From an uncultured Candidatus Sumerlaeota bacterium (lineage in GTDB: Bacteria > Sumerlaeota > Sumerlaeia > SLMS01), in assembly GCA_964346275.1 (NCBI GenBank), contig CAYFUR010000003.1, positions 47,011 to 111,010 on the forward strand: a stretch of 64,000 nucleotides of DNA, read 5' to 3'. Positions 4,421 to 32,573 of the stretch are shown one piece after another. Below the pieces are notes generated by a model. It had not been told where the DNA came from. It made no database searches and saw only the letters and a program-made list of their open reading frames with translations. Every line of letters begins with the position of its first letter. Within the stretch, counting starts at the first letter, position 1. Both the position numbers and the translations under genes were made by a program.

Positions 4421-5181
4421 TACTTGTCTATCACCATGTCTCTCCTCTTGCTTCTGTGCCCGCCCCCGAGGAACGGGAACACAACGAGGGATGGGAATAC
4501 ACGATCGCGCCGGAAGCCTTCCGCAATCAGCTCCAACTTCTTCGGAAAAGGGGCTTTCGATTCATCTCGCTCGATCATCTGGCAAGCCTTCTTCTCCAAG
4601 GCGAAAACGAACCCGCCGACACGATCGTGGTGACTTTCGATGATGGGTGGATAGACAACTGGAACCACGCATGGCCCATCCTGAAAGAGCTCGAAATACC
4701 GGCAACGTTTTTCGTCACGACCGAACATCTCCGTAAAGGCGCCATGGTCGAAGGCAAAAAGATGGGACCGAAAGCGCTGCTCAAGCTGGCGGAATCCGGC
4801 ATGACCATTGGCGCCCATACGCGCACCCATGCGGATGTTTCCCGCGTTGCGAAAGAGATCGCCCGGGATGAGATCGCCGGAAGCCGGGAGGACCTGGCGA
4901 ACGTGCTGGGAGAACCGCCCCGCTTCTTCGCTTATCCAGGCGGAGCTTTTAATCGCCCGGCCGCGGACCTTGTTGGCGAGGCTGGCTATACAGCGGCCTG
5001 TTCCGTCGTCGGAGGTGGCCGTAACACACCGGGCGACCGATATTGGCTCTACCGGACGGTGCTGTCCGAGCGGCTGAATACTCTCCGTGATCGAATTTTT
5101 CTCTCGCCGCTGGCTCGGCCTTTCCTTAGCTCGCGAGCGAAAAGAACGACGGCGGCACTTCTCGGCCAGCGAAATGGCTGA
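4417..5181 (+). CDS. Polysaccharide deacetylase (NodB/CE4 family)
   Basis: ATG at 4417 overlaps the upstream stop (ATGA). 'VTFDDGW' carries the CE4 catalytic Asp-Asp pair; 'IGAHTRTH' is a metal-binding His motif. Confidence 0.8.
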   Translation: MILVYHHVSPLASVPAPEEREHNEGWEYTIAPEAFRNQLQLLRKRGFRFISLDHLASLLLQGENEPADTIVVTFDDGWIDNWNHAWPILKELEIPATFFVTTEHLRKGAMVEGKKMGPKALLKLAESGMTIGAHTRTHADVSRVAKEIARDEIAGSREDLANVLGEPPRFFAYPGGAFNRPAADLVGEAGYTAACSVVGGGRNTPGDRYWLYRTVLSERLNTLRDRIFLSPLARPFLSSRAKRTTAALLGQRNG

Positions 5182-16641: not shown

Positions 16642-16642
16642 C

Positions 16643-17809
16643 TTGCACATCGCTCATTTTATTCCCTACTCCGGCAGTGCCCAGGGAGGCCCCGTAGTGG
16701 CTCTGGCCGGCATGACCGCCGCACTGCACAAACGCGGCCACGGCGTTTCCCTTTTCAGCGTCTCCCGCACTCAGGACGGCCCGCAAATGGCATTCAATGG
16801 TGCCGTGGATCTGCAAACGGCGACCACGTCGCGGCTTGGATCTTTTCGGTGGTCACCGGAACTTCATGGAAAAGCCCGATCGGCCAGGCCGGATATTGTC
16901 CATTCCCATTGCCTCTTTACGGACGTAAACAGATTGGCCGGGAAAACGGCCCGGCGTGTTGGCGTGCCGCATCTCATCGCCCCCTGCGGACACCTTCAAC
17001 CCGACGCTCTCAAACGCTCCGCATGGAAGAAACACCTCGCCATGGCAGCCTTCCAGCGCCGATTTCTCAGGCGGGCGGACTGCCTTCACGTAAAGTCCGA
17101 GCAGGAGCTTGCAGGCGTGCGGAGCGCCGGATTCAAGGGGCCAGCGGCGCTCATCCCAAATCCTGTCGTGCCCCTCGGCCAGGATTGTCTCGACACGGAA
17201 TCTTTTCGAAAACGGCTCGGCCTCAAAAGCGAAGAGAAAATCATCCTGTTTCTGGGAAGAATTCATCCCGTCAAGGGGCTGGACCCCCTGGTTGAGGCAT
17301 GGAGCCGCTTAGCCAATCAATACGGAACCTGGAGGCTGGTGATTGCCGGGCCGGACGAGGGAGGGTTCCAGAGTGAGATCCTTTCGAAAGCGAAGGAAAA
17401 GGGATGCGCCCATTCCATTTGTTTCCCGGGACCGCTGGACGAGAAGACCAAGTGGAGCGCTTACGCTGCATCCGACCTTTTCGTCATGCCCAGCGATTTC
17501 GAAAATTTCGGGCTTTCCATCGCCGAGGCTCTATCGGCGGGACTCCCTGTGATCGCGTCGGATGGGACTCCCTGGAAAGACCTGCCCACCGCAGGCGCGG
17601 GTTGGTATATACCACGAACCGTCGAAGCCCTCGTGGAGGCCCTGGAGGATGCGATGGGCCTCCCGGATGAAAAAATTGGGGACATGAAAGGCCGTGCTCG
17701 CCACCTGGCCGAAGCGTATAGCCCTCAGGAAATTGCCTTCCGGCTCGAAGCTGTCTACTCGTGGCTTCTGGGCCAGGGCCCGAGACCCGAATGTGTTACT
17801 GGTTCTTGA
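16643..17809 (+). CDS. Family 1 glycosyltransferase
   Basis: TTG start 1 nt after the upstream TAG; no nearby ATG. 'FENFGLSIAEALSAGLPVIASDGTPWKDL'. Confidence 0.8.
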   Translation: MHIAHFIPYSGSAQGGPVVALAGMTAALHKRGHGVSLFSVSRTQDGPQMAFNGAVDLQTATTSRLGSFRWSPELHGKARSARPDIVHSHCLFTDVNRLAGKTARRVGVPHLIAPCGHLQPDALKRSAWKKHLAMAAFQRRFLRRADCLHVKSEQELAGVRSAGFKGPAALIPNPVVPLGQDCLDTESFRKRLGLKSEEKIILFLGRIHPVKGLDPLVEAWSRLANQYGTWRLVIAGPDEGGFQSEILSKAKEKGCAHSICFPGPLDEKTKWSAYAASDLFVMPSDFENFGLSIAEALSAGLPVIASDGTPWKDLPTAGAGWYIPRTVEALVEALEDAMGLPDEKIGDMKGRARHLAEAYSPQEIAFRLEAVYSWLLGQGPRPECVTGS

Positions 17810-17813
17810 TCCA

Positions 17814-18380
17814 ATGAAAAACGAGCAACCCCTCATACGGACGAATCAAGCATCCACGCTCAGCCTTCGAAACCGCCTGGGTCGGGCATTGTGGCAGATC
17901 GTGTGGGTGCTCTTGTTCCGCCTTTCTCCCGTTCCTTTTCATGGGTGGCGGCGCGGCCTTTTGAGGCTCTTTGGCGCCCGGATCGGAAGACGGGCCAAGG
18001 TCTATCCCTCCGTATCGATCTGGGCGCCATGGAATCTGACAATGAAAGAGGGAGCCGTGCTTGCCCCTCATGTCATCTGTTATTCGGTGGCGAGAATCTC
18101 CATCGGCCGCGAAACCACGGTGTCCCAGTATAGCCACCTCTGCGCAGCCACCCACGATTTCGAAGACCCTGCGTTCCCCCTTGTGAAGAAACCAATTCGT
18201 ATAGAAAATCAGGTCTGGATCGCTGCCGATGTCTTTATCGGGCCGGGCGTCACCATCGGCGAAGGAACGGTGGTGGGCGCGCGTTCCAGCGTCTTTACAA
18301 ACCTCCCGCCATGGGAGATCTGCCTGGGGACGCCTGCCAGGCCAGTCCGCGAACGCAAAATCAAACAACCGAAATCATGA
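17814..18380 (+). CDS. Hexapeptide-repeat acetyltransferase (WcaF/colanic-acid-type)
   Basis: ATG at 17814. Left-handed beta-helix repeats 'VWIAADVFIGPGVTIGEGTVVGARSSV'. Confidence 0.8.
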   Translation: MKNEQPLIRTNQASTLSLRNRLGRALWQIVWVLLFRLSPVPFHGWRRGLLRLFGARIGRRAKVYPSVSIWAPWNLTMKEGAVLAPHVICYSVARISIGRETTVSQYSHLCAATHDFEDPAFPLVKKPIRIENQVWIAADVFIGPGVTIGEGTVVGARSSVFTNLPPWEICLGTPARPVRERKIKQPKS

Positions 18381-19699
18381 AAAAAGAAGAAGCCGCCTCT
18401 CCTGCCCCCGGGCCCATCGTCATCCTCTGTCATTACTTCTGGCCCGAGGAAATGGCCACCGCCGAGATGGTTTCCGGCGTTGCCTTTGAGCTTTCGAAAC
18501 AGGGGCTTCCAATAGCGGCCATTGCCGGCCAACCCGCTTATCGCAACCGTGGGGCGTTTCTTCCCCGCACAACTTCTCAGCATGGGGTGGTGATTCGCCG
18601 TGTTTGGTCGACGCGGTTTAACAAGAACAACCCCGCCGGAAGGATCCTGAATACAGCCACGTTCGCGGTCTCCGCCTTTCTGGCCGCCTTGTTCTTTCCC
18701 AACCCCGGAGGATATCTGGCCGTCACCAACCCTCCCCTGCTGCCATGGGTGGCTGCCCTTGTTGGATTCCTCCGGCGCCGCCCCTGCTATTTGCTGATCC
18801 ATGATGTGTATCCCGAAATTGCCATCGCCCTCGACAAGATACCGCCTGGCTCGGCGGTGGCCCGTTTCTGGGGATGGCTCAATCGCCAATGTTATCGGCA
18901 AGCCGACCGTATTATCGTTTTGGGGAGCTGTATGGCCCGGGCGATTCATCCCTATTTGCGCGAATCAGAACGGGACAAGACGGTTATCATTCAGAACTGG
19001 GCAGATGGCGAAAGAATCCAGCCCGTCCCGTCGGGTGAGAACCCGCTGCTCCAGGAACTGGGGCTTGAGGACAAATTCGTCGTCTCCTATTCGGGGAACA
19101 TCGGGCTTTTCCATGAAATCGAGACGATCGCGAAAGCGGCCAAGGCGCTCGAAAATCGAGCGGATATTCATTTCCTTTTCATCGGCGACGGCGCGCAGCA
19201 CGTCTGGCTGAAGAACTTCCTGGAAGAAGAGAAACTGGCAAACGCCACGCTCCTTCCTTTCCAGCCGAAAGACCGGCTTCCGACCACCCTGACGGCATGC
19301 GATGCGGGCCTGGTCAGCTTGAAGGACGAAGCCACGGGCTATTGCGTTCCCAGCAAGTTCTACGGCATGTTGGCGGCCGGCAAAGCCATCATCGCGATTG
19401 CAAATGAAGCGAGCGAAGTCGCGGAGGCAGTCCAGCGCCACGGGTGCGGCATGGTGATTCCCCCGGGGAACGCCGGGCTTCTCCGCCAGGCAATTGAGTC
19501 CCTTGCGAAGGACAAGACAAGAGCCCAGAAAATGGGTTCAAAAGCCAGAATTGCATTTCGTCAAAATTATTCCCTTGCAAAAACAGTCGCTAAATACATA
19601 GAAACACTGACTTTCAAAAGCGAAATCCCCTGCCAAGTAGGTGGGAATTCTCCGGAAATTCAGGACAAAGACTCGCGTGCCTCCCAAATTCGGCCCTGA
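18377..19699 (+). CDS. Family 1 glycosyltransferase (WcaI-like)
   Basis: ATGA overlap. N-terminal 'IVILCHYFWPEEMATAEM' and a typical GT-B C-terminal half. Confidence 0.85.
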   Translation: MKKEEAASPAPGPIVILCHYFWPEEMATAEMVSGVAFELSKQGLPIAAIAGQPAYRNRGAFLPRTTSQHGVVIRRVWSTRFNKNNPAGRILNTATFAVSAFLAALFFPNPGGYLAVTNPPLLPWVAALVGFLRRRPCYLLIHDVYPEIAIALDKIPPGSAVARFWGWLNRQCYRQADRIIVLGSCMARAIHPYLRESERDKTVIIQNWADGERIQPVPSGENPLLQELGLEDKFVVSYSGNIGLFHEIETIAKAAKALENRADIHFLFIGDGAQHVWLKNFLEEEKLANATLLPFQPKDRLPTTLTACDAGLVSLKDEATGYCVPSKFYGMLAAGKAIIAIANEASEVAEAVQRHGCGMVIPPGNAGLLRQAIESLAKDKTRAQKMGSKARIAFRQNYSLAKTVAKYIETLTFKSEIPCQVGGNSPEIQDKDSRASQIRP

Positions 19700-21167
19700 A
19701 GAATTCTCCATACGCAAACAGTCCCCAGCCGCGGCTGAATCCGGTCCCGCTGTTGATCCGTATCCCGCATTCCGCGCGGAGAGCCCACCGGCGGAATTGC
19801 CAGCGGCTCAAAGAGCCGCGCGGAGCGCGACCAAGTATTTCATCCGGGCCAGGACGAGCCGCTGGATCACTTGGGATGCGTTCGTCGCATTTCTCTCCCT
19901 CACCCTGGGCTATGCCCTTTCGCCAAAGGCGGACATCTTTCCCGGGGCTCCTGTCCAAGCACTCCTCGCCTATCCTTTTCTTGCCATGGCAGCAGGACAG
20001 GTGGCGGGCCTGTACGAACGGCAGATCCTCCTCAGCGGTGCGCGCCTTCTTTCATCAGCCATCGTTTCCGGCCTTCTCTCGGTCGTCTTCCTCGTCTTAT
20101 TCTACAATTTTGTCCTCTTCGAGCCAGCAGGCCGCTGGGTCCTCCTGATCACGGCAAGCTGCTTTTTCTTTGGACTTTCCGCTCTTCGCTTCCTGATCCA
20201 TTTCCTCGGACGTTTCTACAAAATCCGTGTCCTGATCGTCGGAAAAAACGAAGGCCACAACCCGGTTGTCCGCCATCTGACCATGGGCGACCGCCACCAC
20301 GTTCTCGCGGGCTTTTGCAACGTTCATGGAAAGGCCGATCATGATCGATATGTCGGACATTTGGATAATTTGCCGGCCTTGTGCCGCCGTTACGACATAG
20401 ACGAAGTCCTTGTCTCCGAAGAATTCCTGAACGAATCAGACGTTCTCGAGAAATGCTTCGGTCTCCTCGATATGGGAGTCACGGTGCTGGACGAGTGCTC
20501 TTTCTTTGAACAGACTTTCGAGCAAGTCCCCGTCGAGCGAATCAAGGGGGCCTGGTTCTTCAACGCCAAGATCGGCCAGCAAAAATCCTTCGACGTTTTC
20601 CTCAAACGCCTCATGGATATCGTTCTCTCCCTGGTGGGGATCTTGTTGCTCGCCCCCGCCGCCCCCCTTATCTGGCTGGCAATTCGCCTGACTTCTCCCG
20701 GCCCGGCAATCTATACACAGATTCGTGCGGGGCAATTCGGCAGGCCATTTCGGATCTACAAGTTCCGCACGATGCGCCTGGACGCGGAAAGGAATGGCCC
20801 GGTCTGGGCTTCGGAACGCGATCCACGCATCACGGCGGTTGGCCGACTGCTTCGAAAGACAAGGCTCGACGAAATCCCCCAGTTTTGGAATGTACTGAAA
20901 GGGGACATGTCCTTCGTCGGCCCGCGGCCGGAGCGGCCCGAGCAAATCCACCGGATTGAGCAAAAAGTCCCCTATTTCGGTTACCGTCACTGGTTCCGGC
21001 CGGGAATCACGGGCTTGGCCCAGGTGCGTTATCCCTACTCCGCGAGCGTGGAAGATGCGAAGACGAAACTTCAACACGACCTGTATTACCTCAAGAATTT
21101 CAACATTCTGCTGGATATTCAGATTATCATGAGAACGGCTGCGGCCATCATGAAGGGCGCACGCTAA
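19641..21167 (+). CDS. Polyprenyl-phosphate hexose-1-phosphate transferase (WbaP/WcaJ 'bacterial sugar transferase' family), initiating enzyme
   Basis: C-terminal catalytic domain: 'SPGPAIYTQIRAGQFGRPFRIYKFRTM', 'DEIPQFWNVLKGDMSFVGPRPERPEQ'. N-terminal TM helices. The true start is uncertain; the longest frame overlaps the upstream gene by 59 nt. Confidence 0.85.
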   Translation: MGILRKFRTKTRVPPKFGPEEFSIRKQSPAAAESGPAVDPYPAFRAESPPAELPAAQRAARSATKYFIRARTSRWITWDAFVAFLSLTLGYALSPKADIFPGAPVQALLAYPFLAMAAGQVAGLYERQILLSGARLLSSAIVSGLLSVVFLVLFYNFVLFEPAGRWVLLITASCFFFGLSALRFLIHFLGRFYKIRVLIVGKNEGHNPVVRHLTMGDRHHVLAGFCNVHGKADHDRYVGHLDNLPALCRRYDIDEVLVSEEFLNESDVLEKCFGLLDMGVTVLDECSFFEQTFEQVPVERIKGAWFFNAKIGQQKSFDVFLKRLMDIVLSLVGILLLAPAAPLIWLAIRLTSPGPAIYTQIRAGQFGRPFRIYKFRTMRLDAERNGPVWASERDPRITAVGRLLRKTRLDEIPQFWNVLKGDMSFVGPRPERPEQIHRIEQKVPYFGYRHWFRPGITGLAQVRYPYSASVEDAKTKLQHDLYYLKNFNILLDIQIIMRTAAAIMKGAR

Positions 21168-21186
21168 GCCCAGGTATTCCCCCACA

Positions 21187-21222
21187 AACAAGCTCCCGGG
21201 CGATATGACCCGGGAGCTTGTT
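21187..21222. terminator. Bidirectional rho-independent terminator candidate between convergent operons
   Basis: Perfect 14-bp inverted repeat AACAAGCTCCCGGG/CCCGGGAGCTTGTT with an 8-nt loop. It sits exactly between the convergent stop codons at 21167 (+) and 21253 (-). Confidence 0.55.
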
Positions 21223-21252
21223 CATTTATGCCAGCTTGCTCTGGTGTCTTTC

Positions 21253-23562
21253 TCAGTCGGTGCGCGGATGATAGCCGTAGGGATGACCATAGCCATATCC
21301 ATAGGTGCCGATGGAGACCTCGGACTTCGTCCGATTGTAAATCACGCCAAGGATTCGCGTATCCATTGAGCGCAGCCGCTGCACGGTGTTTTCCAGCGTA
21401 TGCATCGGCGTGCTCCCCAGCCGAACCACAAGACAGGCGCCTTCGACCTTCTGCGCCAGCACCAGGGAATCTGCTACGGCATCGCACGGGGCGGAATCCA
21501 GAATAATCAGCGAGTAATGCTTCTTCAGTTGCTCGAGCAATTCGCTCATGCGGCGGCTGTCGAGCAAGTTCAGCGGAGACGGCGTTGAGGCTCCCGCGGG
21601 CATGAAATTCAGATCTGGTACATCCGTGGGTTGAATGACTTCCTCTAAGCTCTTCTGGCCCGTCAGGACTTCGGAAAGTCCCGATTCCCGCTTGGAATTG
21701 AATGCTTCATGGAGAATCGGGCGGCGAAGGTCCGCGTCGATTACCAGAGTCTTTTCTCCCTTGCCCGAGAAATTGAGCGCCAGATTCGAGCAAATCGTCG
21801 ACTTGCCTTCCATCGGCAGACAGCTCGTCACCATCAGAACGCAGGGGGGATGCTCTGCTGTAGAATACTGCAAGGACGTCCGCAGATAGTGAAAGGCCTC
21901 GCGTCCCAACCCTGCTTGCTTGTCCGGCTGTTTCGTCGTCAGGGGAAGTGGCTGGCGCTTCTTGCGCGAAAAAACCGAAGTGAACGATTTACGGCCACCG
22001 AGAAATGGAATCGTGGCGAGCGTTGGCAGTTCCAACCTCTCTTCCACCACATCGGGATTCTTGATCGAGCGATCCAGCCAGGAAAGAAGCAGCACAAGCC
22101 CTCCGCCGACAAGCAAACCGAAGAAGAGGAACTTCGACATCGTGGAAGCAATCTTCGGAGAGGAATGCGAAGTGGGGATGCTCGCCGGCCGGGTGATGCC
22201 GACGTCGCGGAAGGAGAGCCCATCGGCCACGTCCAGCCGTTTATACTGATCGAGCAGTCCTTCGTATATTTCGCGGGTCGAGTCCACTTGCCGCCTTAAC
22301 ATTCGAAAATCAATCATCTTTCCTTCGATCAAGTGGACCTTTTCCTTTTGCTGCTCCAGACGATCGAGAAGGTGCTTCTCCGTGATCTCCGCCATCTGAA
22401 GACGGCTGCCGAAATCGTTAAGAACGGCCTGCGTCGCGCTGGTCAACTCATCGCGGATTCCGGAAATCTCCAGATCAATCCGGCGAAGCTGCGGATAGTC
22501 GGGCTCGTTTTCCGCGGCGATGGAAATTCGCTTCACCTGGAGTTCGCTGAGCTGGCGCAGAAGCGCCGTATAATAAGGATCCTCGGAAATGAGCGTTTGG
22601 CGAACCGATCCGGAGCCCGCTGCTTCCTTGCGAGCCCCGTAAAGGGCGATTTCATTCTTCGTTTCCTCGATCTGTTTCGTTAGGCTGACCATGGTATCGA
22701 TGGAAATCTTCAGTGTCTCCTCCATCGCTTTCAGATCGGATTCCGAGTTGAATTCGTAGAGTTCTTTCTCCGCCGCCTCGAGTTCCTGCTTTGTTTCCTC
22801 GATTTGTTCGGCCAGGAAACGGCGCGCATAGCTGAAGGCTTCCGCTTGCTGCTCTTCCACGTCCGAGATGAACTGGTTCGCGAATTCGTTGGCGATCTCC
22901 GCCGCGCGGTTCGGATCGCGATCGGTGACCGTGATCTCGATGAGCTTCGTGCTGCGCTTCTGATTCACAGAGACTTTGCCGAGCAAATCGGCGATTCGCT
23001 TCTGGTTTTCCAAGGTCCGCTCGTCGGCCTGGATGTCGGGCACGTTTACAAGGCGATTCTGGAGAAAGCCGATGGAACTCGAAACAGCGTTCTTCGCTGC
23101 GGCAAGAGGGGATTCCTCCCGGGGTTCGTCCGGTTTCGCAGTTGAAGAGGCGTAGAGCCCGAGAGCATCGATCACCGACTGGGCGACTTTGGGGCTGCGA
23201 ATCATCTCCACCGCGGTTTCCATCTCGTCGATGCGGAAATAATAGGGCCGGGCGCCGAGCTGCATGTCCATATCGAGGACTTTCTGGCGCGACGGCTCAT
23301 ACATGATTGTCGCCGTGGAGGAGTACTTGGGGGTCGTGCGGCTGAGCTGAAAGGCACCCAGGGCCAGGAATATGAGGAGGCAAAAAAGAATGAGCCAGAT
23401 ATGGCTCACGAAAAGCCGGAAATAATGCCTCAGATCATAATCGAGGAGCTTGGGGGACAGCATTCCTCTCGAGGGCATGCTCTTTCCACCGCCGGCCCAG
23501 GCCAGCCCCGATTCACGCTGATCGCCGCCGTTCTGGGGCGGGTTTTTCTCAGAATCCTGCAC
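21253..23562 (-). CDS. wzc: Polysaccharide co-polymerase / tyrosine autokinase (Wzc/EpsB-like)
   Basis: GTG start at 23562. N-terminal TM, a Wzz-like periplasmic coiled-coil region, a second TM and a C-terminal P-loop 'GKSTICSNLALNFSGKGEKTLVIDADLRRP'. A Tyr-rich tail 'YGYGYGHPYGY' is encoded at the 3' end. Confidence 0.85.
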   Translation of the reverse strand: MQDSEKNPPQNGGDQRESGLAWAGGGKSMPSRGMLSPKLLDYDLRHYFRLFVSHIWLILFCLLIFLALGAFQLSRTTPKYSSTATIMYEPSRQKVLDMDMQLGARPYYFRIDEMETAVEMIRSPKVAQSVIDALGLYASSTAKPDEPREESPLAAAKNAVSSSIGFLQNRLVNVPDIQADERTLENQKRIADLLGKVSVNQKRSTKLIEITVTDRDPNRAAEIANEFANQFISDVEEQQAEAFSYARRFLAEQIEETKQELEAAEKELYEFNSESDLKAMEETLKISIDTMVSLTKQIEETKNEIALYGARKEAAGSGSVRQTLISEDPYYTALLRQLSELQVKRISIAAENEPDYPQLRRIDLEISGIRDELTSATQAVLNDFGSRLQMAEITEKHLLDRLEQQKEKVHLIEGKMIDFRMLRRQVDSTREIYEGLLDQYKRLDVADGLSFRDVGITRPASIPTSHSSPKIASTMSKFLFFGLLVGGGLVLLLSWLDRSIKNPDVVEERLELPTLATIPFLGGRKSFTSVFSRKKRQPLPLTTKQPDKQAGLGREAFHYLRTSLQYSTAEHPPCVLMVTSCLPMEGKSTICSNLALNFSGKGEKTLVIDADLRRPILHEAFNSKRESGLSEVLTGQKSLEEVIQPTDVPDLNFMPAGASTPSPLNLLDSRRMSELLEQLKKHYSLIILDSAPCDAVADSLVLAQKVEGACLVVRLGSTPMHTLENTVQRLRSMDTRILGVIYNRTKSEVSIGTYGYGYGHPYGYHPRTD

Positions 23563-23715
23563 GAGTCTTGTCTCTCCCGTCTGCCTGCGCCATCAGGCAG
23601 GCGCAAATCCGGCGAAGATTTGCCGATCCGTGGCCTTGTTACAATGAGAAACTCGTCATCCTCGCCCAGAAATCTCAGGGGTTTTATCGAGGAAGCCGGG
23701 CCGCGGAGCAGAGAA

Positions 23716-24714
23716 TTATTGTTTCCGGTTTTTCTCGAAGGATTTGCGGATCACATAGGGCCGTTTTTCCTGCCCCTCGTAGTAACTGCGGATCATGATT
23801 TCGCCCAGCAAACCGATGCTCAGGAACTGAAAGGAACTCAGCAGAAAGAAGATGCTCAGAAAGAGCCAGCCATTGCGGTTGATGTTCAAATAGGGCGGGA
23901 AAAGCTTCTGATAAACTGTGATGGCTCCGCAGAGAGATCCGCCCAGGAAGCTCAGAAGGCCCAGCATGCCGAAGATCTGCATGGGTTTGGTGGAATAGGA
24001 GAGCAGGAACTTCACCGTCACCAGGTCCAGCAACACGCGTGTCGTGCGTCCAAAGCCGTAGTTGGATTTGCCATGGCGGCGCGGCCGATGGCGTACCTTG
24101 ATCTCGGCGACGGTAGCTCCGCCCCAACTCGCCAGCGCGGGCAGAAAGCGATGCATCTCGCCGTAGATATTCAAGTCTTTGACGACCTCCCGGCGATAGG
24201 CCTTGAGGGTGCAGCCGAAGTCATGGATCTGGACTCCGGTGATCGCCGCGATGAGCCGGTTGGCCAGCACCGAGGGCAGTGTGCGCGTCAGGTAGGCATC
24301 CCGGCGCTTGAAGCGCCATCCGCTCGCCACATCGTATCCCTGATCAATCACACGAAGCAGGCGCGGGATGTCGTGAGGGTCGTTCTGCAAATCCGCATCG
24401 ATGGGTATGATCACGTCGCCCCTGGCATGACGAAACCCGGCGGAAAGGGCGGCGGTCTGGCCAAAATTCCTGCGGAAGACGATGCCCGCCACGTGATCCG
24501 GATCGGCTTCGTGCAAGTCCTCGATCACTTTCGCGGAACCGTCGGTACTCCCGTCATCGACAAAGAGAACCTCCCATTCGGCGTCGAGCTTCTCGAGCAC
24601 GGTCTCGAGTTCCCGATGAAGAGGCTCCAGATTCCCCTCTTCATTAAAGACGGGGACAATAACGGAAACCAGTCGTTTTGAATCCTCTGCCATGGCCAGG
24701 ACTAACTCTATCAT
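23716..24714 (-). CDS. Polyprenyl-phosphate glycosyltransferase (GT2; ArnC/GtrB/DPM1-like)
   Basis: 'VSVIVPVFNEEGNLEPL...WEVLFVDDGSTDGS'. Two TM helices near the C-terminus are typical of Und-P-sugar synthases. An alternative ATG lies at 24693. Confidence 0.8.
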   Translation of the reverse strand: MIELVLAMAEDSKRLVSVIVPVFNEEGNLEPLHRELETVLEKLDAEWEVLFVDDGSTDGSAKVIEDLHEADPDHVAGIVFRRNFGQTAALSAGFRHARGDVIIPIDADLQNDPHDIPRLLRVIDQGYDVASGWRFKRRDAYLTRTLPSVLANRLIAAITGVQIHDFGCTLKAYRREVVKDLNIYGEMHRFLPALASWGGATVAEIKVRHRPRRHGKSNYGFGRTTRVLLDLVTVKFLLSYSTKPMQIFGMLGLLSFLGGSLCGAITVYQKLFPPYLNINRNGWLFLSIFFLLSSFQFLSIGLLGEIMIRSYYEGQEKRPYVIRKSFEKNRKQ

Positions 24715-24841: not shown

Positions 24842-25597
24842 ATGGAAGAGCGGATTTACCAGCGTTATTTTGAAATCGACCGGCACCATTTCTGGCGCCA
24901 TGGAAAGCGCCGCCTCACCATTCGCTGGATGCGCAGGTATCTCCCGCGCCGGACCGGGACGCCCAGGTTGCTGGATATCGGCAGCGGCCCCACGCTCTAT
25001 CCAAAGAAGCTTCAGCAGCTGGGAGATCTCACAGTCATTGAACCCCACGAGGAAACCGCGCTCTTTTTAACGGAAAAAATGAAGGTCCGCACGGTTGCCG
25101 GCGAGCTGCCCGGGAATCTCCCCGTGGAGGGCCCATTCGATGGGATCAGCATGCTCGACGTGCTGGAGCATGTGGAGGATGAGCAACAAGCCCTGCAATC
25201 GGTGCATCGCCTGTTGGCGGATGACGGAGTGCTCCTGCTCACGGTCCCTGCCTACCAATGGATGTGGAGCCCCCACGACGACCTCTCGCACCATTACCGG
25301 CGCTATACTGCGACGCGATTAAGGCGCGCCCTGCAAAAAAGCGGATTTCGCGTCGAGCGAATCACCTATTACACGTCCCTCCTGTTCCCAATCGCGGTGG
25401 CTCAAAGGACCGCTGCCAAGTTGATGCAGCGCTCGGGGCTGCGGGAATACGAGCCAAAGGTTCCCCATCCCGCGATTAATCAGGCATTTGGCCTGGCCAT
25501 GCGGCTGGAATTCGAGCTTCTGAAGAACGCCGATCTTCCCTTCGGCCTCTGCCTTCTCTGCGCTGCGCGAAAGCGCGGGGGACGCGCATGCCACTAG
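24842..25597 (+). CDS. Class I SAM-dependent methyltransferase
   Basis: ATG at 24842. 'LLDIGSGPTLY' (motif I) and 'DGVLLLTVP' (motif III). Divergent from the GT2 gene. Confidence 0.7.
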   Translation: MEERIYQRYFEIDRHHFWRHGKRRLTIRWMRRYLPRRTGTPRLLDIGSGPTLYPKKLQQLGDLTVIEPHEETALFLTEKMKVRTVAGELPGNLPVEGPFDGISMLDVLEHVEDEQQALQSVHRLLADDGVLLLTVPAYQWMWSPHDDLSHHYRRYTATRLRRALQKSGFRVERITYYTSLLFPIAVAQRTAAKLMQRSGLREYEPKVPHPAINQAFGLAMRLEFELLKNADLPFGLCLLCAARKRGGRACH

Positions 25598-26804: not shown

Positions 26805-27182
26805 ACTGATTTCCTGCCTGAATGCCCGGGCTGGCCCCACCCCGGTCCGGGCATTGACCCCTCCTTTTTTTCTCCCTGTATCAATCCTCATCAGAGGGTT
26901 TCCGCAGGTCAAAAGCTCCTCTCAAATTCATTTATTATAATCCAAAATCCAGCACCTCCCGTTTTTCCGTAAAAGAACGGATATCAAATAAAAAAACTCC
27001 GGGAGCTTAAGGCTTCTGGACTTATCCGCGAGAGAGGCCCCTCTTTTTCATTGCGAACGGGGATGCCGCAAAAGACCCTTTCCTCATTAGGAAATTTTGC
27101 CTGATGAATCTTGTTTTGGACCATAGAAGTTGAAAACCAGCCAGGACTGAGACAAGGATACCGCGACCAGGAGAAATGCGTC

Positions 27183-28625
27183 ATGGGTGCTTCGCAGGCC
27201 CCCGCGAGCACGAAATTGCCTTTAAGGATTCAGATGCTCGACGACGACGCCACCAGCCTGGCGATGCTCGGGCATGTCCTCTCGCGCCAGGGCTGGGATG
27301 TGATGCCTTGCCAGTCGATCGCCGAAGCCTCCTCAATGCTCCAACAGACCATCCCCGACGTGGCAGTTGTCGATGTCTATCTCGACGGCGAGGATGGACT
27401 CTCCTTCGTCAGCCACTTGCGGAAGGACTATCCAGACGTCGGCATTGTGGTCATTTCCGCGGAAGATACGGAAACGCTGGCAAAAAAAGCCGTGAAATCG
27501 GGGGCTGACTATTTCCTGAGCAAGCCCATCGCCCCGGCCGCATTGGTCCTGACCCTGCGCCGGCTGGCGGAACTGCGCCAGGAACGCCAGCGGGTAACCA
27601 CCCTGGAACACGAATTGGAGCGCTCCGTCCGCGACACGCTCTTTCCCGAAATCGTGACACACAGCGATTCCATGCGCTCGATTCTCCGGCTTGTTGAAAA
27701 GGTGGCCCCCCGCGAGTTATCCGTTTTGATCTGCGGGGAAAGCGGAACGGGAAAAGAACTCGTCGCCCGTGCGATCCACCAGCATAGCCTCCGGTCCAAA
27801 GGGCCTTTCGTCGAACTCAACTGCGCGGCACTGCCTCCCAACCTGGTGGAAAGCGAACTTTTCGGCCATGAAAAGGGAGCCTTCACCGGGGCAGTCGCCT
27901 CGCGCGCGGGGAAGATCGAACTTGCGGACGGAGGCACGCTCTTTCTTGATGAAATCGGAGAGCTCCCGCTGGAAATACAGCCGAAGCTTCTCCGGGCGCT
28001 TCAAGAGCGGCGGGTCACTCGAGTTGGGGGCAAAGAGGACATTCATTGCGATTTCCGCCTGGTGACGGCGACAAATCTCGACCTGCTGAAAGAGGTGCGC
28101 GAGAACAATTTCCGCGAAGACCTCTTTTATCGCGTGTCCGTCTTCCCGATCAAATTGCCGCCGCTACGCGAACGCATGGAAGACATGCCCATGCTGCTGG
28201 CGCACTTCCTGAAACAGGAGGGGATTCAGAACCCACACATTTCCGATGAGGCCCGGGCGGCGCTTCAGGTCTATCACTGGCCCGGGAATATCCGCGAGCT
28301 AAAGAATTTCTCCCAGGCGGTGCCCCTCCTGACGGATAATGAGTTGATCGACGAAGACGCCGTCATGGCCTACTTTGGCAGCCGCATCGGCGGGGGCCCC
28401 CCCCCCCCCCCCCCCCCCCCAAACCCCCCGAAGAGGCAGGGGGGCAGCGGCGGATCAAAAACCCGCCGGCAAAATGGCGGCGCGGGACGCCAGGAAAACC
28501 TCCATGCCTTGCGTGTCTACAACGGCAATGTGCCCGAGGCCGCCCTTGCCCTTGGGATGGGACGAGCCACCCTTTATAAATACATCAAGAAAAACGATAT
28601 CACCCTCGAAAACTTCACCGTATAA
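27183..28625 (+). CDS. Sigma-54-dependent transcriptional activator (NtrC family: REC + AAA+ + Fis-type HTH) with internal Pro8 linker
   Basis: REC domain 'VAVVDVYLDGEDG'. AAA+ sigma-54 domain: 'VLICGESGTGKELVA', the GAFTGA loop 'HEKGAFTGA', 'LFLDEIGELP'. C-terminal HTH 'EAALALGMGRATLYKYIKK'. No adjacent sensor kinase. Confidence 0.9.
   Translation: MGASQAPASTKLPLRIQMLDDDATSLAMLGHVLSRQGWDVMPCQSIAEASSMLQQTIPDVAVVDVYLDGEDGLSFVSHLRKDYPDVGIVVISAEDTETLAKKAVKSGADYFLSKPIAPAALVLTLRRLAELRQERQRVTTLEHELERSVRDTLFPEIVTHSDSMRSILRLVEKVAPRELSVLICGESGTGKELVARAIHQHSLRSKGPFVELNCAALPPNLVESELFGHEKGAFTGAVASRAGKIELADGGTLFLDEIGELPLEIQPKLLRALQERRVTRVGGKEDIHCDFRLVTATNLDLLKEVRENNFREDLFYRVSVFPIKLPPLRERMEDMPMLLAHFLKQEGIQNPHISDEARAALQVYHWPGNIRELKNFSQAVPLLTDNELIDEDAVMAYFGSRIGGGPPPPPPPPNPPKRQGGSGGSKTRRQNGGAGRQENLHALRVYNGNVPEAALALGMGRATLYKYIKKNDITLENFTV
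28397..28420. repeat. 24-nt homopolymeric C tract inside the CDS (encodes PPPPPPPP)
   Basis: c(24) at 28397-28420, followed by aaa and c(6), read directly from the sequence. It lies in frame between the AAA+ domain and the HTH of the sigma-54 activator. Confidence 0.95.
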
Positions 28626-28729: not shown

Positions 28730-29860
28730 ATGTTCAAACGCGTGCTGGTTACCGGCGGTGCCGGGTTTATCGGTTCCCACATGGTCGACCTCCTGCTTGA
28801 AAAGGGCTACAAAGTCCGCGTCTTCGACAATCTCGAGCCACAAGTCCATGGAGAAAGAGACACGCCACCCGGATATCTGTCGCGCGAGGCTGAATTCATT
28901 CGTGGCGATGTACTCGACCGCGATGCCTTGAAGAAAGCGATGGAAGGATGCGACGCGGTGATTCACGACGCCGCCATGGTTGGTGTCGGTCAGTCGCAAT
29001 ACCAGATCCAGCGCTATACGCATGTCAATACAACGGGGACGGCCATTCTGCTGGATATCCTGGCCACGGAAAAAACGACCGTGGAGCGCCTCATGGTCGC
29101 CAGCTCGATGAGTATTTACGGAGAGGGCCTTTATCGGCGGCCATCGGACGGCGCAGCAATGGCCCCTTCGCTCCGTCCGGACCACCAGTTGGAAGCGTTG
29201 GATTTCGAGATGCGCGACCCGGAGACCGGCGAGGCACTCGAGCCGGTGCCTACCCCGGAAAGCAAACCACTTTATTGTACATCGATCTATGCGCTGAACA
29301 AGAAAGACCAGGAAGAATATTCCATCGTGGCAGGCAGGACCCATGGAATCCCCGTTGTGGCCACCCGGTTCTTCAATGTTTACGGGCCGCGCCAATCCCT
29401 TTCAAACCCTTACACAGGGGTGGCAGCGATCTTCTCCTCGCGTATCAAGAACGGCAACCCTCCGTTGATTTACGAGGACGGCCATCAGTCGCGGGACTTT
29501 ATATACGTCCGCGACCTGGTGGAGGCGAAACTTTTTCTCCTGGAAAACGAAAAGGCCAATCTGGAAGCCTTCAATATCTGCACGGGCCGCTCGACTTCGG
29601 TGCTCAAGATCTCCGAGATCCTCGCGGAACTCCATGGCAAGCCAGAACTCAAGCCAGAGGTGGTGAAGCGTTTCCGCTCCGGTGATATCCGTCATTGTTT
29701 TGGAGACCCCAAAAAGCTCGCCAGCCTTGGATGGACTGCCCAGACGCCCCTGGAAGAAGGAATGAAGATCCTTGTGAAGTGGTCCGCCGAGCAGGAAGCG
29801 GTCGACCAGGTGGATAAAGCCCACCGGGAACTCGTCGAACGCGGATTGGTAAAGGAGTAG
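28730..29860 (+). CDS. NAD-dependent nucleotide-sugar epimerase/dehydratase (SDR family)
   Basis: ATG at 28730, preceded by GGAG. 'VLVTGGAGFIGSH' is a Rossmann motif; a YxxxK catalytic motif is expected; the protein is 376 aa. Confidence 0.85.
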   Translation: MFKRVLVTGGAGFIGSHMVDLLLEKGYKVRVFDNLEPQVHGERDTPPGYLSREAEFIRGDVLDRDALKKAMEGCDAVIHDAAMVGVGQSQYQIQRYTHVNTTGTAILLDILATEKTTVERLMVASSMSIYGEGLYRRPSDGAAMAPSLRPDHQLEALDFEMRDPETGEALEPVPTPESKPLYCTSIYALNKKDQEEYSIVAGRTHGIPVVATRFFNVYGPRQSLSNPYTGVAAIFSSRIKNGNPPLIYEDGHQSRDFIYVRDLVEAKLFLLENEKANLEAFNICTGRSTSVLKISEILAELHGKPELKPEVVKRFRSGDIRHCFGDPKKLASLGWTAQTPLEEGMKILVKWSAEQEAVDQVDKAHRELVERGLVKE

Positions 29861-29870: not shown

Positions 29871-31640
29871 GTGCTGCGAGAAAGAAAACCACTGGAATCA
29901 AGGATACCCGATATCGGCGACGATATAGACAGGAAGGAGCGCCGAATCTGGCTCTCCCTTCCGATACTCTATATGCTGGTCATCCTGACCTGGGCGGGAG
30001 TTTTTGGTGTTCGCCTCGCTGGTCCTCCCAATATTATGGATGAGGACCAGCGGCGCCCGGCGGCCTATGCCCTCGACGTGATCGCCAACAACCAGTGGCT
30101 GGTGCAACGCGACGATACCGGAGACATCACCTCAAAGCCGCCGCTCTATACGTGGCTTGTCGTTTTCGCGTCCGGGATCTGGGGAGGACTGGATAACTTT
30201 ACGCTCTACCTGCCGGGCGCCTTGTCCGTTTTGGCGCTGGCTCTCATGATCCAGGCTCTTGGCGCATCAACTTTCGGACGGCTCGGAGGCTTCTTCGGGG
30301 CCGTGGCCTACCTCTTATCATCGGCGGGATTCGAACAGGTCCACCTCGCCCGAACAGATGCGGTCTTTTCGCTCGCGGTTTTCGTTTCCGCGCTGCTCGC
30401 CTACCAGGCGGCGCTGGGCCGGCGGTCCTGGATCTGGTTCTGGCTGGCATCGGCGATTGCCACACTGACAAAAGGACCACTGGGCCTGCTCCTCGCCGCG
30501 GGCGGGCTCCTTGGGCTGATCGGCCTGGGCAGTAAGAAAACAGGCGGAGAAAACCGCCCGGTGGTTCGCCAGCACATAATCGGTTTTGCGCTTTTTCTAC
30601 TGATTTCAGGAGGGTGGTTCTTCCTGGCCTGGCTCAGTGCGGGCCAGCCGCTCATCGACAAAATGATCGGCAAGGAACTCGTCGGCCACGCCGTGGAAAG
30701 CGGAGACGGCCAAAAGCCATTCGAAGGGCTTGTAAAGCCGAGTCTTTATTTTCTTTCACGCTTTCTCCCCTGGTCGGTTTTTGCCCTTATTGGAATCGTT
30801 CGCGTTTTTACGTCCCCTTCCGCAAGCCTTGAGAACCGGCGTATGGAACGGTTCCTCGCGGCCTATTTTCTTTTTGGCCTCGCGCTCTTCTCCATCGCGC
30901 CCCATCAGCGCTGGGTGCATCAGTACCCTTTGCTTCCCGCCGCCTCGTTGCTCGCGGGATGCGAGATCGTGCGTCTTCTCCCCCGCCGCTGGATTTTTCC
31001 TGCATTACGCTGGTATCCGCTGGCGGCGGGAGCCCTCCTGATATGCGCCGGAGTCGTCTATCAAGCAGTTCGAGGCCCGCGCGTCGAACGATCCGTCCTC
31101 TCTCGCGAAGCCGCCGAATACATCGAAGAAGCCACCCACAGCCATTTTCCCATCATGCACGTCGATTCAACCATGGCCGTGCAGTATTACCTGGGCACCA
31201 TGCGGCCGCGTATCACACATGCGCAGGCCGTGGAGGCACTCGCCTCGGACCACGCCGCCTTCGTCCTCGTTCAGGACAAGGACGATTTCGACAAGATCTA
31301 CTGGAAGAATCCGGATGGCATCCACATTATCAAGGATTGGAACGAGTCCGGACGGGATTATCCCTATATGCGTCTTCTCGGAAACCGCCCCGCGATGGAC
31401 CAGTACGAGAGGCTCGTCTTCTATCAAAACGACTTTCGCGTCGCGACTGCGGGAGCGCGCCTGGAACGGATGACCTACAACCAGTTTGAATTCTTCCCCT
31501 ATGGCGAGGCTCCCCGCGCCGTCATCACCAACGACGCGGGAAAACGCCGCACCGTCCGCGTTGGATTTATCGAGGGAGAATCGAAGAAAATGAAGAAACG
31601 CCGTCTGGAACCTGGCGAGTCCGCCGTCTTCACTCCCTGA
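29871..31640 (+). CDS. GT-C glycosyltransferase, ArnT/PMT-like (GT39/GT83 family)
   Basis: GTG start. 'DEDQRRPAAYALDV...SKPPLYTWLVVFA' is an ArnT-type first-loop motif; 'ATLTKGPLGLLLAAGG'; about 12 TM helices plus a C-terminal soluble domain. Confidence 0.75.
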   Translation: MLRERKPLESRIPDIGDDIDRKERRIWLSLPILYMLVILTWAGVFGVRLAGPPNIMDEDQRRPAAYALDVIANNQWLVQRDDTGDITSKPPLYTWLVVFASGIWGGLDNFTLYLPGALSVLALALMIQALGASTFGRLGGFFGAVAYLLSSAGFEQVHLARTDAVFSLAVFVSALLAYQAALGRRSWIWFWLASAIATLTKGPLGLLLAAGGLLGLIGLGSKKTGGENRPVVRQHIIGFALFLLISGGWFFLAWLSAGQPLIDKMIGKELVGHAVESGDGQKPFEGLVKPSLYFLSRFLPWSVFALIGIVRVFTSPSASLENRRMERFLAAYFLFGLALFSIAPHQRWVHQYPLLPAASLLAGCEIVRLLPRRWIFPALRWYPLAAGALLICAGVVYQAVRGPRVERSVLSREAAEYIEEATHSHFPIMHVDSTMAVQYYLGTMRPRITHAQAVEALASDHAAFVLVQDKDDFDKIYWKNPDGIHIIKDWNESGRDYPYMRLLGNRPAMDQYERLVFYQNDFRVATAGARLERMTYNQFEFFPYGEAPRAVITNDAGKRRTVRVGFIEGESKKMKKRRLEPGESAVFTP

Positions 31641-32556
31641 CTGGGAAAGCTTGATCCCAATCTTCGCTCTTCCCTTTGTTCCGTCTCTTTTTCTGGAAGC
31701 CGCCTTCGATCAGTTTCTGGACTTTGGTGCCCCAATCAAAAGGCGTATAGAAGGCGAAAACCGCCTGGACCGCAAACATGCCAATCCCGGCGCCCAAAAT
31801 CACGTCGCCGGGATAATGGCGCCGGTATCGCACGCGCGCAAGTGCACACCCCACTGCAAGCAAATACCAGAGGAACCGGCCTTTCGGAAGAACACGCGCC
31901 AGGTAAGCCGCAAGAACAAAGGCACCCGCGGCATGGCCACTGGGGAAGGAGGAATAATTTGAAATGCTCAGGATTCCGCGCTCTTCGCCAAAGGGGAGCC
32001 TCCCCGAAATCCAACTGAAGATTTCCGTTCCGGGCCGTTCCCGGGAAAACCAGAGCCAGTAGTCTCCAGGAACGGGCTCGAGCACGGTGTTGCTGTATTG
32101 ATTGAGATAAGAGGAAATTTCTTCCTGCTCCGCTTTCCCCATTTTCCAACCATATTTCGGGCGTGCCCGTCCCGTGGAGAATTTGATCGCGTTGACTGCC
32201 AGTGAAGAGATGAGAACCGCGCACAGCAAAGGCACGAGCGTGCCGCGGAGATCCTGGCGATAAATCCAGATCACCAAGGCCACCGTGGCCATCACCGTAA
32301 AAGTCGCGAATTGCTCCGTCGTAGAAAAGAACTCATCGAGAGCATCGAGAGAATACTTCAAAAAGAAGTAGAGAGCATCCCAGGAAGCACGGGAGAACTG
32401 GATTTCAACGGCAGCCACCAGCGCGGGAATTACAAGATAAAGCCAGCTTCTTCCGGTGAGGGGCTTGCGAAAGGGATAATTGCGATTGTCGGACGGAGCA
32501 GGCATTTCCAACCTTGTGCAGAGGAGAATGACTGGGCTTGCCCCTTTGCCGGGCAT
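31630..32556 (-). CDS. PAP2-family phosphatase (membrane)
   Basis: 'FPSGHAAGAFVLAAY...VRYRRHYPGDVILGAGIG' are PAP2 motifs 2 and 3 (PSGH, SRxxxxxHxxxD-like). It is antisense to and overlaps the ends of both flanking GT-C genes; an alternative ATG lies at 32505. Confidence 0.8.
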   Translation of the reverse strand: MPGKGASPVILLCTRLEMPAPSDNRNYPFRKPLTGRSWLYLVIPALVAAVEIQFSRASWDALYFFLKYSLDALDEFFSTTEQFATFTVMATVALVIWIYRQDLRGTLVPLLCAVLISSLAVNAIKFSTGRARPKYGWKMGKAEQEEISSYLNQYSNTVLEPVPGDYWLWFSRERPGTEIFSWISGRLPFGEERGILSISNYSSFPSGHAAGAFVLAAYLARVLPKGRFLWYLLAVGCALARVRYRRHYPGDVILGAGIGMFAVQAVFAFYTPFDWGTKVQKLIEGGFQKKRRNKGKSEDWDQAFPVRE

Positions 32557-32573
32557 CCTGGAAGCAGGTCACT

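Follow-up and report, generated by a model that had tools for sequence, protein, structure and literature searches.

The window analysed here, a stretch of 64,000 nucleotides from an uncultured 'Candidatus Sumerlaeota' bacterium of microbial mats, carries a glycosyltransferase gene, referred to below as GT2, that lies where two loci for envelope glycans meet (Table 1). The first of these is an exopolysaccharide/O-polysaccharide operon, which encodes Wzm, Wzt (with a Wzt_C domain) and a Bac_transf priming transferase for export and priming, along with a methyltransferase, twelve GT2/GT4-type glycosyltransferases, a CE4 deacetylase, a hexapeptide acyltransferase and two multi-TM proteins. The locus is closed by a Wzc-like kinase (237 bits to TIGR01005 and 193 bits to Wzc), located 153 nt downstream of GT2 on the same strand.

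The second locus comprises an epimerase, two GT-C-type membrane glycosyltransferases, a PAP2 lipid phosphatase and an LptF/LptG-family permease. The epimerase gene ends 10 nt before GT-C 1, and its product is most similar in the PDB to PelX, a UDP-GlcNAc C4-epimerase (6wjb/6wj9, 170 bits). The PAP2 protein carries the motifs KxxxxxxRP, PSGH and RxxxxxHxxxD; its best PDB match is LpxE (6ebu), at a weak E of 0.006, and matches to Und-PP phosphatases were weak too. It could be an LpxE/LpxF-like enzyme or, equally, an Und-PP phosphatase.

Scans for regulatory elements added little. To tie the operons to the sigma-54 regulator, the window was searched for sigma-54 promoters (TGGCAC-N5-TTGCW, up to two mismatches), which gave 19 matches against 26 expected, i.e., no signal; the match in the intergenic region between GT2 and the divergent methyltransferase lacks the GG. 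Sigma-70 promoters and terminators around GT2 were at or below chance, and neither Rfam nor tRNA scans gave any match within the window.

Table 1 Genes and features of the two envelope-glycan loci and of the remaining candidates, with positions in the window
Feature	Position	Strand	Evidence and remarks
Exopolysaccharide/O-polysaccharide operon	504-21167	+	Pfam scans
CE4 polysaccharide deacetylase	4369/4417-5181	+	PF01522 6e-29
GT-C 3	14135-15562	+	Compact GT-C fold (475 aa) inside the exopolysaccharide operon; AlphaFold2 pLDDT 92.7
Wzc-like polysaccharide co-polymerase/tyrosine autokinase	21253-23562	-	Wzz, GNVR and AAA_31 domains
GT2	23716-24714	-	ORF of 332 aa
SAM-dependent methyltransferase	24842-25597	+	Divergent from GT2; Methyltransf_23 3e-16
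Sigma-54 regulator	27111-28625		
GalE/PelX-type NAD-dependent sugar-nucleotide 4-epimerase	28730-29860	+	Epimerase 1.8e-49; insertion of ~40 aa
GT-C 1	29871-31640	+	PMT_2/ArnT-like membrane glycosyltransferase; PF13231 35.1 bits (cutoff 26.1)
PAP2 lipid phosphatase	31630-32556	-	Between GT-C 1 and GT-C 2; PF01569 4e-20
GT-C 2	32538-34352, likely start 32574	+	ArnT-like (GT83-type); PF02366 (PMT) 2.7e-21, 77 bits
LptF/LptG-family LPS export permease	34394-35515	+	PF03739 3.4e-47; 41 nt downstream of GT-C 2
GT-C 4, probable	60518-62311	+	Profile and family evidence only

The coordinates given in a sequence-only reading of this DNA all correspond to real ORFs. For GT2, the start used in public gene calls is M8 (24693), which is the likely one and yields a protein of 325 aa. 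A PF00535 domain covers residues 17-180 (E 3.3e-36, Pfam scan), and an overlapping plus-strand ORF (23401-24681) without a Pfam match was dismissed as a shadow ORF. Hydropathy analysis identified two C-terminal TM segments (residues 247-265 and 284-306), forming a hairpin at 247-306, and both line up with the transmembrane helices of ArnC in an alignment that reaches residue 326-327. The C-terminal TM pair expected from the earlier reading is thus present, and GT2 is the only protein of its type in the window to possess it.

Among characterised enzymes, GT2 is nearest to ArnC (PmrF, the Und-P 4-deoxy-4-formamido-L-arabinose transferase; PDB 9hwj, 8vxh and 9bhc), with which it shares its length and the arrangement of a GT-A domain, juxtamembrane helices and two TM helices. 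The match to 9hwj runs end to end (215 bits, 37% identity over 306 aligned residues), as compared with 121 bits for GtrB and 66 bits for DPMS. The NCBIfam ArnC model NF007986 was likewise matched over its full length (220.4 bits, residues 15-327), followed by the PgfS model with 151 bits. Residues 106-111 constitute a DXD-type metal motif, DADLQN, which aligns with 100-DADLQN-105 of ArnC, and R134, S148 and R212 correspond to ArnC R128, S141 and R205, the residues for acceptor and donor phosphates (PMC12690121). All of these positions are invariant in an alignment of 27 orthologs. T169 of GT2 is replaced by Met in ArnC and by D157 in GtrB. The proposal that GT2 is an ArnC/GtrB-like Pren-P-sugar synthase is therefore borne out: by homology, it is a polyprenyl-phosphate glycosyltransferase of the ArnC/GtrB/DPMS class, predicted to load a sugar onto a lipid carrier.

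It is not an ArnC equivalog, as the score is below the curated NF007986 cutoff of 529 and no ArnA or ArnB is encoded in the window. Unlike ArnC, GT2 has no arnBCADTEF context, and it belongs to a separate orthogroup. Genes for ArnA, ArnB, formyltransferase, aminotransferase or YdjC-type deacetylase were absent from the ~52 window genes scanned, and neither ArnA, ArnB nor ArnD occurs among the recurrent neighbours of 80 GT2 orthologs.

Four GT-C enzymes had been suggested for the window. GT-C 1 and GT-C 2 were both matched by Pfam and are paralogs (24% identity, E 1e-13), with acidic motifs in the first periplasmic loop that read MDEDQR and RDESRYA, respectively. GT-C 2 aligns over about 440 residues with ArnT of C. 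metallidurans (GT83, PDB 5ezm, E 7e-12) and retains the equivalents of D55, K85 and R270, whereas D takes the place of E84, and G that of H265, one of two His; we take these five ArnT positions to be catalytic or Und-P-binding. Its score against the NCBIfam ArnT model (144 bits, equivalog cutoff 567) led us to reject it as an ArnT equivalog. RgtA-D, FlmK and LgmB are related to ArnT and attach other sugars to lipid A.

GT-C 3 itself gave no match in Pfam scans, but PMT_2 or PMT was found in some members of its family, in which D36 is nearly invariant. Its high-confidence model retrieved ArnT (5ezm, E 2e-6) as the top Foldseek match, followed by ALG12, Emb, ALG9, AglB and AftB, in support of the third candidate; by predicted fold, this compact family can now be recognised as GT-C. 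The fourth fared less well. GT-C 4 consists of an N-terminal TM helix, a β-rich periplasmic domain of ~150 aa and a multi-TM core, and its family is rare, with 40 representatives among 1.84 billion. PMT_2 was matched by 9 of 33 members, and hhalign connected it with the GT-C 3 family over about 100 columns (92% probability, E 7e-7); D243-D244, following a TM helix, is invariant. On the other hand, direct searches of Pfam, NCBIfam and the PDB gave no match, the AlphaFold2 model (pLDDT 46.5, from a two-sequence alignment) was too poor for a fold search, and the gene is unlinked, lying 36 kb away among housekeeping genes, between mnmE and a gene for a CxxCxxCC protein. GT-C 4 is thus probably a very rare GT-C with an added N-terminal β-rich domain. 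The ORF 12651-14138 was considered as a fifth GT-C and rejected (hhalign probability 0.6%); it is probably a Wzy-like polymerase. The window thus does encode putative GT-Cs able to consume the GT2 product, one of them ArnT-like, as had been proposed.

A NodB-type deacetylase had also been noted, and the PF01522 match confirms it. Together with GT2 and an ArnT-like transferase it had been assembled into a triad, in which GT2 would make an Und-P-N-acyl-amino-sugar, CE4 would de-N-acylate it at the cytoplasmic face and a GT-C would move the cationic amino sugar to lipid A. Several features are in keeping with this route: the nearness of GT2 to ArnC, the ArnT-like character of GT-C 2, and the similarity of the epimerase to a UDP-GlcNAc 4-epimerase, which makes an N-acetylhexosamine donor possible. 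CE4 lacks a signal peptide and TM segments, as expected of an enzyme at the cytoplasmic face, and retains intact motifs for metal binding and catalysis, so that it would resemble ArnD, a CE4-like deformylase, and NaxD/LgmC in being a cytoplasmic metal-dependent de-N-acetylase. NaxD and LgmC, however, belong to the YdjC family, not to CE4. The gene is 19 kb from GT2, in the other operon, where it overlaps the flanking glycosyltransferase genes on both sides. Its best matches are PgaB, PdaB, IcaB, HfsH and PplD (PDB 6dq3), the PDB matches being polysaccharide or peptidoglycan deacetylases, and none of the 11 NCBIfam families matched is named for ArnD. No CE4 homolog was found within 10 kb of GT2 orthologs (0/80 loci). 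Given also the missing Arn genes and the ArnC score below cutoff, the triad is highly improbable, and we regard CE4, from its sequence and setting, as a putative cytoplasmic enzyme of the exopolysaccharide pathway and not an ArnD analog.

The GT2 orthogroup is very large and well conserved, spans more than 15 phyla at 50-61% identity and is separate from both ArnC and GtrB; the best relative in the genome collection is only 59% identical. We examined the neighbourhoods of orthologs in 80 genomes. A GT-C-like gene directly adjoins the ortholog (≤300 nt) in 17 of these and is found within 5 kb in 21, which supports the logic of a donor passed to a GT-C. In one case (L007), the adjoining GT-C is homologous to both GT-C 2 (66 bits) and GT-C 1 (32 bits), and in another (L075) a PMT_2 GT-C, the GT2 ortholog, an LPG_synthase_TM protein and a PAP2 protein are encoded in one row. 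In L040, one operon contains the GT2 ortholog and, at a distance of 1.1 kb and in the same orientation, an ortholog of the window epimerase (298 bits). Homologs of the divergent methyltransferase adjoin GT2 orthologs in L063 and L069. The window GT-Cs showed marginal homology to Planctomycetota GT-Cs that follow GT2 orthologs, and no pairing was drawn from this.

The commonest neighbour of the orthologs is not a GT-C, but a GT4 of ~390 aa (31/80 loci, directly downstream in 21). This, and the presence of the orthogroup in monoderm and CPR lineages without LPS, would fit a GT2 that feeds no GT-C and acts with a cytoplasmic glycosyltransferase in the initiation or modification of a membrane glycolipid or another lipid-linked intermediate. 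We hold such a role to be very unlikely here: no homolog of the recurrent GT4 was detected in the window, adjacency to GT-C genes is frequent as well, and all characterised members of the structural class make Pren-P-sugars for periplasmic or extracytoplasmic transferases (PMC12690121).

We therefore favour, with a probability of about 65%, a role of GT2 in making an Und-P-sugar for periplasmic GT-Cs, foremost the ArnT-like pair GT-C 1 and GT-C 2. As homology and conserved residues suggest, the cytoplasmic GT-A domain would use a nucleotide sugar as donor and the phosphate group of the lipid carrier as acceptor; the carrier would reach the catalytic centre by passing between the juxtamembrane helices, and the C-terminal TM hairpin would serve as anchor. 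The Und-P-monosaccharide would then be flipped and serve as donor for GT-C transferases at the periplasmic face, as the enzyme class and the gene adjacency in other genomes imply. The best-supported consumers would be the two paralogs, which flank the PAP2 gene and are co-linear with the epimerase and LptF/G genes; this arrangement points to lipid A or core as the target, to which a hexose or N-acetylhexosamine of galacto configuration would probably be added. GT-C 3 of the exopolysaccharide operon may draw on this donor as well.

A number of observations count against this pairing. A distance of 5-8 kb, occupied by the methyltransferase, an aldo-keto reductase and the sigma-54 regulator, separates GT2 from the ArnT-like genes, which are encoded on the other strand, and the sole same-strand neighbour of GT2 is the Wzc-like kinase. 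The prevalence of the GT4 over GT-C among ortholog neighbours and the weakness of the PAP2-LpxE match point the same way, as does the lack of a flippase gene: Pfam scans and a crude hydropathy filter found no GtrA, ArnE/F or LPG_synthase_TM-type flippase in the window.

The position of GT2 upstream of the co-oriented Wzc-like kinase, with no convincing terminator between them, raises the alternative that its product is used solely by GT-C 3, for a periplasmic side branch of the exopolysaccharide, and that the ArnT-like pair is served by a donor encoded elsewhere. Parallels exist in the GtrA/GtrB/Gtr(type) system of O-antigen glucosylation and in GacI/GacL of streptococcal rhamnopolysaccharide, and PgfS, the second-best NCBIfam match of GT2, comes from a streptococcal side-chain glucosylation system. 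Members of the GT-C 3 family adjoin GT2 orthologs in L069 and L073, and in L084 a distant TM-anchored Pren-P GT2 and a homolog of the methyltransferase are followed by a member of this family. However, GT2 is 8 kb from GT-C 3 and on the opposite strand. A habitual linkage between the GT-C 3 family and Pren-P GT2 proteins was rejected, the survey being essentially negative and the four single contexts mixed: a distant Pren-P-GT-like GT2 occurred near the family in ~4 of 80 metagenomic loci, and a full-length ortholog in none (0/80). Moreover, Und-P-sugars diffuse in the membrane, so position cannot argue for exclusive use. We consider this alternative possible but rather unlikely, and retain supply of the ArnT-like pair as the preferred role.

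The pairing of a Pren-P-sugar synthase with GT-C transferases is an already well-known pattern (Gtr, Arn, Gac and Rgt). GtrB (Synechocystis sll0501, PDB 5ekp) with GtrA and Gtr(type), PgfS and GacI/GacL all follow the same logic of synthase, flippase and GT-C; GtrB and PgfS are full-length homologs of GT2, more distant than ArnC. As with GacI/GacL, there is an ABC-exported polymer (Wzm/Wzt) with a GT-C in the locus, whereas in contrast to the Gtr systems the window has no GtrA-like flippase and its GT2 and GT-C genes are non-adjacent.

PAP2 phosphatases (LpxE/LpxF) act beside ArnT-related transferases in Rhizobium and Francisella. One could accordingly picture the second locus, fed by GT2, as a lipid A remodelling system, in which the PAP2 enzyme would strip one or more phosphates and the GT-C pair would add a sugar of galacto configuration (Gal, GalNAc or GalN) to both ends of the lipid A disaccharide, or to the core. 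We put this forward as a speculative and unlikely elaboration; if true, phosphate masking in the style of Rhizobium, Aquifex and Francisella would exist in an uncultured microbial-mat lineage, with a donor synthase drawn from a pan-bacterial orthogroup. More broadly, this orthogroup is often fused into operons with genes for PMT_2-type GT-C, LPG_synthase_TM and PAP2 proteins. For the mat bacterium, the analysis gives one gene a role, and the two envelope-glycan loci that meet at it could share a lipid-linked sugar donor.

The minus-strand GT2 ORF encodes 332 aa (Pfam Glycos_transf_2, E 3.3e-36), or 325 aa from the start used in public gene calls, M8 (24693), and an identical protein is also present in microbial-mat metagenome assemblies. 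A plus-strand ORF overlapping it (23401-24681) had no Pfam match and was discarded as a shadow ORF. GT2 aligned end to end with the NCBIfam models ArnC (residues 15-327, 220 bits) and PgfS (151 bits). Among solved structures it matched ArnC at 215 bits (37% identity, 306 positions), GtrB at 121 bits and, in the GT-A part, DPMS at 66 bits. Its metal motif D106-ADLQN corresponds in the alignment to ArnC 100-DADLQN-105; R134, S148 and R212, invariant in 27 orthologs, align with ArnC R128, S141 and R205, to which coordination of the acceptor and donor phosphates has been assigned (PMC12690121). Hydrophobic segments 247-265 and 284-306 make up a C-terminal TM hairpin, which the other three GT2 genes of the window lack. 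By sequence, GT2 thus qualifies as a member of the polyprenyl-phosphate (Pren-P) glycosyltransferase class; both the ORF and its ArnC/GtrB-like assignment in the sequence-only reading are upheld, including the TM pair on which that assignment depended.

GT2 is not, however, an ArnC equivalog, as its 220 bits against that model compare with a cutoff of 529. At Thr169, invariant across its orthogroup, GT2 differs from both ArnC (Met) and GtrB (D157), and Pfam scans of the window detected no formyltransferase, aminotransferase or UDP-GlcA decarboxylase gene. The orthogroup is very large, with at least 8000 homologs at E < 1e-20. Among the matches listed, the closest non-identical relative shares 61% identity, and relatives at 49-59% occur in many lineages of a species-level genome collection, including Hydrogenedentota, Sumerlaeota, Geobacteraceae, Acidobacteriota, Planctomycetota, Desulfobulbaceae, Chloroflexota, Actinomycetota, Clostridia, Omnitrophota, NC10 and a CPR Magasanikbacterium. 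Since monoderms are among them, a dedication of the orthogroup to lipid A is impossible.

Features of the window (GC ~57%) as mapped by Pfam scans
Feature	Position	Strand	Context
Long exopolysaccharide or O-polysaccharide operon	504-21167	+	Wzm, Wzt with Wzt_C domain, methyltransferase, 12 GT2/GT4-type transferases, hexapeptide acyltransferase, Bac_transf priming enzyme
CE4 deacetylase	4369-5181		in the operon
Multi-TM protein	12651-14138		in the operon
GT-C 3 (multi-TM protein)	14135-15562		in the operon
Wzc-like tyrosine autokinase	21253-23562	-	convergent with the operon
GT2	23716-24714	-	153 nt upstream of the autokinase
Methyltransferase, aldo-keto reductase, sigma-54 response regulator			divergent from GT2
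SDR epimerase	28730-29860		start of second cluster
GT-C 1	29871-31640		second cluster
PAP2 phosphatase	31630-32556	-	second cluster, between GT-C 1 and GT-C 2
GT-C 2	32538-34352		second cluster
LptF/G permease	34394-35515		second cluster, last gene
Unrelated housekeeping genes	beyond ~35.5 kb
GT-C 4 (candidate)	60518-62311		housekeeping region, flanked by mnmE and a CxxCxxCC protein

The locus at 504-3329 and 12651-23562 combines traits of two export routes: Wzm, Wzt with its carbohydrate-binding Wzt_C domain and a neighbouring methyltransferase, which could make a chain-terminating cap, are typical of ABC-transporter export, and the Wzc-like autokinase, a WbaP-like priming transferase and the 495-aa multi-TM protein 12651-14138 (no Pfam or NCBIfam match) of the Wzy-dependent route. 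Further downstream, a lone GspG-like pseudopilin of the type II secretion kind (50577-51083; T2SSG 5.8e-25, N-terminal methylation motif) lies in a 1.2-kb, otherwise intergenic-looking stretch with no further T2SS genes nearby. A four-gene ABC-2 system (52101-57159: ATPase, permease, GldG-like ABC_transp_aux and DUF4340 protein) resembles gliding-motility-associated ABC transporters. The minus-strand cluster of DUF2878, DUF1365 and fatty-acid desaturase genes (45653-48377) is a grouping that we take to accompany lipid-modifying genes, e.g., cyclopropane-fatty-acid synthase.

The ORFs of 80 GT2-ortholog loci were compared among themselves and against the window proteins. The commonest neighbour was a ~390-aa GT4 (31/80 loci, directly downstream in 21), and in 13 Planctomycetota loci the ortholog was directly followed by a ~650-aa multi-TM protein, with a PMT_2 match in all four scanned. 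By an iterated GT-C profile, at least 17 of the 80 orthologs have a GT-C-like gene no more than 300 nt away, and at least 21 have one no more than 5 kb away; both counts are lower bounds because many contigs are short. In one acidobacteriotal locus the adjoining GT-C is a clear homolog of GT-C 2 (66 bits) and GT-C 1 (32 bits). In an NC10 MAG (L075, 8219-13046), genes for a PMT_2 GT-C, the GT2 ortholog, a flippase-like LPG_synthase_TM protein and a PAP2 phosphatase stand close together in one row, which has the look of an independent module for lipid-linked glycosylation. Of the 80 orthologs, 13 have an LPG_synthase_TM-like neighbour; no flippase candidate was found in the window.

Synteny is conserved in the Geobacteraceae/Desulfuromonadales loci L005, L010, L019, L023, L034, L040, L054 and L068, which share a trio of TM-bearing GT2 (~325 aa), ArnC-like GT2 ortholog and ~400-aa GT4. 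On inspection of L019, two genes upstream of the trio resemble the cytochrome c biogenesis proteins ResB/CcsB and CcsA, and several sister loci match in size and TM pattern. A Methyltransf_23/11-type SAM methyltransferase recurs beside Pren-P GT2 genes (window, 24842-25597; L063, 3684-4499; L069, 8522-9280; L084, 4217-4924; L018, 5698-6423). In L063 it shares 4 nt with the GT2 ortholog; rows of methyltransferase/GT2/GT-C or GT2/GT-C/methyltransferase occur in L084, a GT-C 3-family locus with a distant Pren-P GT2, and in Planctomycetota. This recurrence may reflect methylation of either the sugar or the acceptor.

The sequence-only reading had joined GT2 and an ArnT-like transferase with the CE4 deacetylase in one triad. 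CE4 (PF01522, 6e-29) has neither signal peptide nor TM segment, and its gene overlaps glycosyltransferase genes on both sides. Its best NCBIfam matches were PgaB, PdaB, PdaA, IcaB, NodB and HfsH, with no ArnD-named family among them, and its best PDB match was 6dq3, cited in the PplD paper. No CE4 homolog occurred in any of the 80 GT2-ortholog loci. These matches, the operon position and the lack of co-occurrence place CE4 in the exopolysaccharide pathway, where the residue that it de-N-acetylates probably belongs to the polymer or to the polymer's lipid-linked precursor and not to an Und-P-sugar donor. In spirit, this is the kind of outcome, a grouping with peptidoglycan deacetylases, that the sequence-only reading had named as refuting it. 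The proposed logic of donor synthase and GT-C is supported by ortholog adjacency, and the deacetylase drops out of it.

GT-C 2 is ArnT-like (PMT 2.7e-21; PDB 5ezm, 7e-12), with 144 bits against an ArnT cutoff of 567. Equivalents of ArnT D55, K85 and R270, which we take to be catalytic and Und-P-binding residues, are kept; D stands in place of E84, and G in place of one of two His. GT-C 1 (PMT_2 35.1, gathering score 26.1) is its paralog (24% identity, E 1e-13); judged from sequence comparison, both are GT-C/GT83-like enzymes and not ArnT equivalogs. GT-C 3 has no Pfam match of its own, and some members of its family are annotated PMT_2/GT39. Its AlphaFold2 model (40-sequence alignment; pLDDT 92.7, pTM 0.93) retrieved ArnT first among PDB entries in Foldseek (E 2e-6), then ALG12, EmbA/B, ALG9, AglB and AftB, and depicts a compact GT-C without periplasmic domain. 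For GT-C 4, Pfam, NCBIfam and PDB searches gave no direct match and the AlphaFold2 model was poor, with pLDDT ~60-85 only in a beta-rich domain. This ~150-aa periplasmic domain stands between an N-terminal TM helix and a multi-TM core; D243-D244 after a TM helix and a K-(E/T)-T-A motif in the core are invariant. The family is very rare, with 40 representatives in a set of 1.84 billion clustered proteins; 9/33 members match PMT_2, and profile-profile comparison with the GT-C 3 family gave 92% probability. GT-C 4 is a probable divergent PMT_2-type GT-C, unlinked to the other parts. Three of the four proposed candidates are thus recognised as GT-C by Pfam or Foldseek, and GT-C 4 probably so, on weaker family and profile evidence.

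The SDR epimerase, ending 10 nt upstream of GT-C 1, is closest to the UDP-GlcNAc C4-epimerase PelX (170 bits) and GalE-type 4-epimerases, and more distant from UDP-GlcA epimerases and decarboxylases. A ~40-residue insertion splits its Pfam Epimerase match into ~5-139 and 172-350 and is conserved in the Geobacteraceae ortholog (L040, 3699-4826). Because this ortholog (298 bits) is operonic with the GT2 ortholog in L040, in the order GT2, GT4, epimerase, we infer a galacto-configured hexose or HexNAc as the donor sugar. Between the two ArnT-like genes lies that of a PAP2 enzyme, which among solved structures weakly matched LpxE best (E 0.006), and LptF/G comes after the pair; this layout suggests that the acceptor is lipid A or core. 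Alternatively, GT2, adjoining the Wzc-like kinase, could serve the exopolysaccharide enzyme GT-C 3: members of that family lie beside a GT2 ortholog in two loci, and another row unites methyltransferase, TM-anchored GT2 and GT-C, but 80 loci of the family show almost no such linkage. GT2 could also serve both the ArnT-like pair and GT-C 3, and GT2 with a GT-C would follow the three-step mechanism familiar from the Gtr, Arn, Gac/Pgf, Rgt, Flm and Lgm systems.
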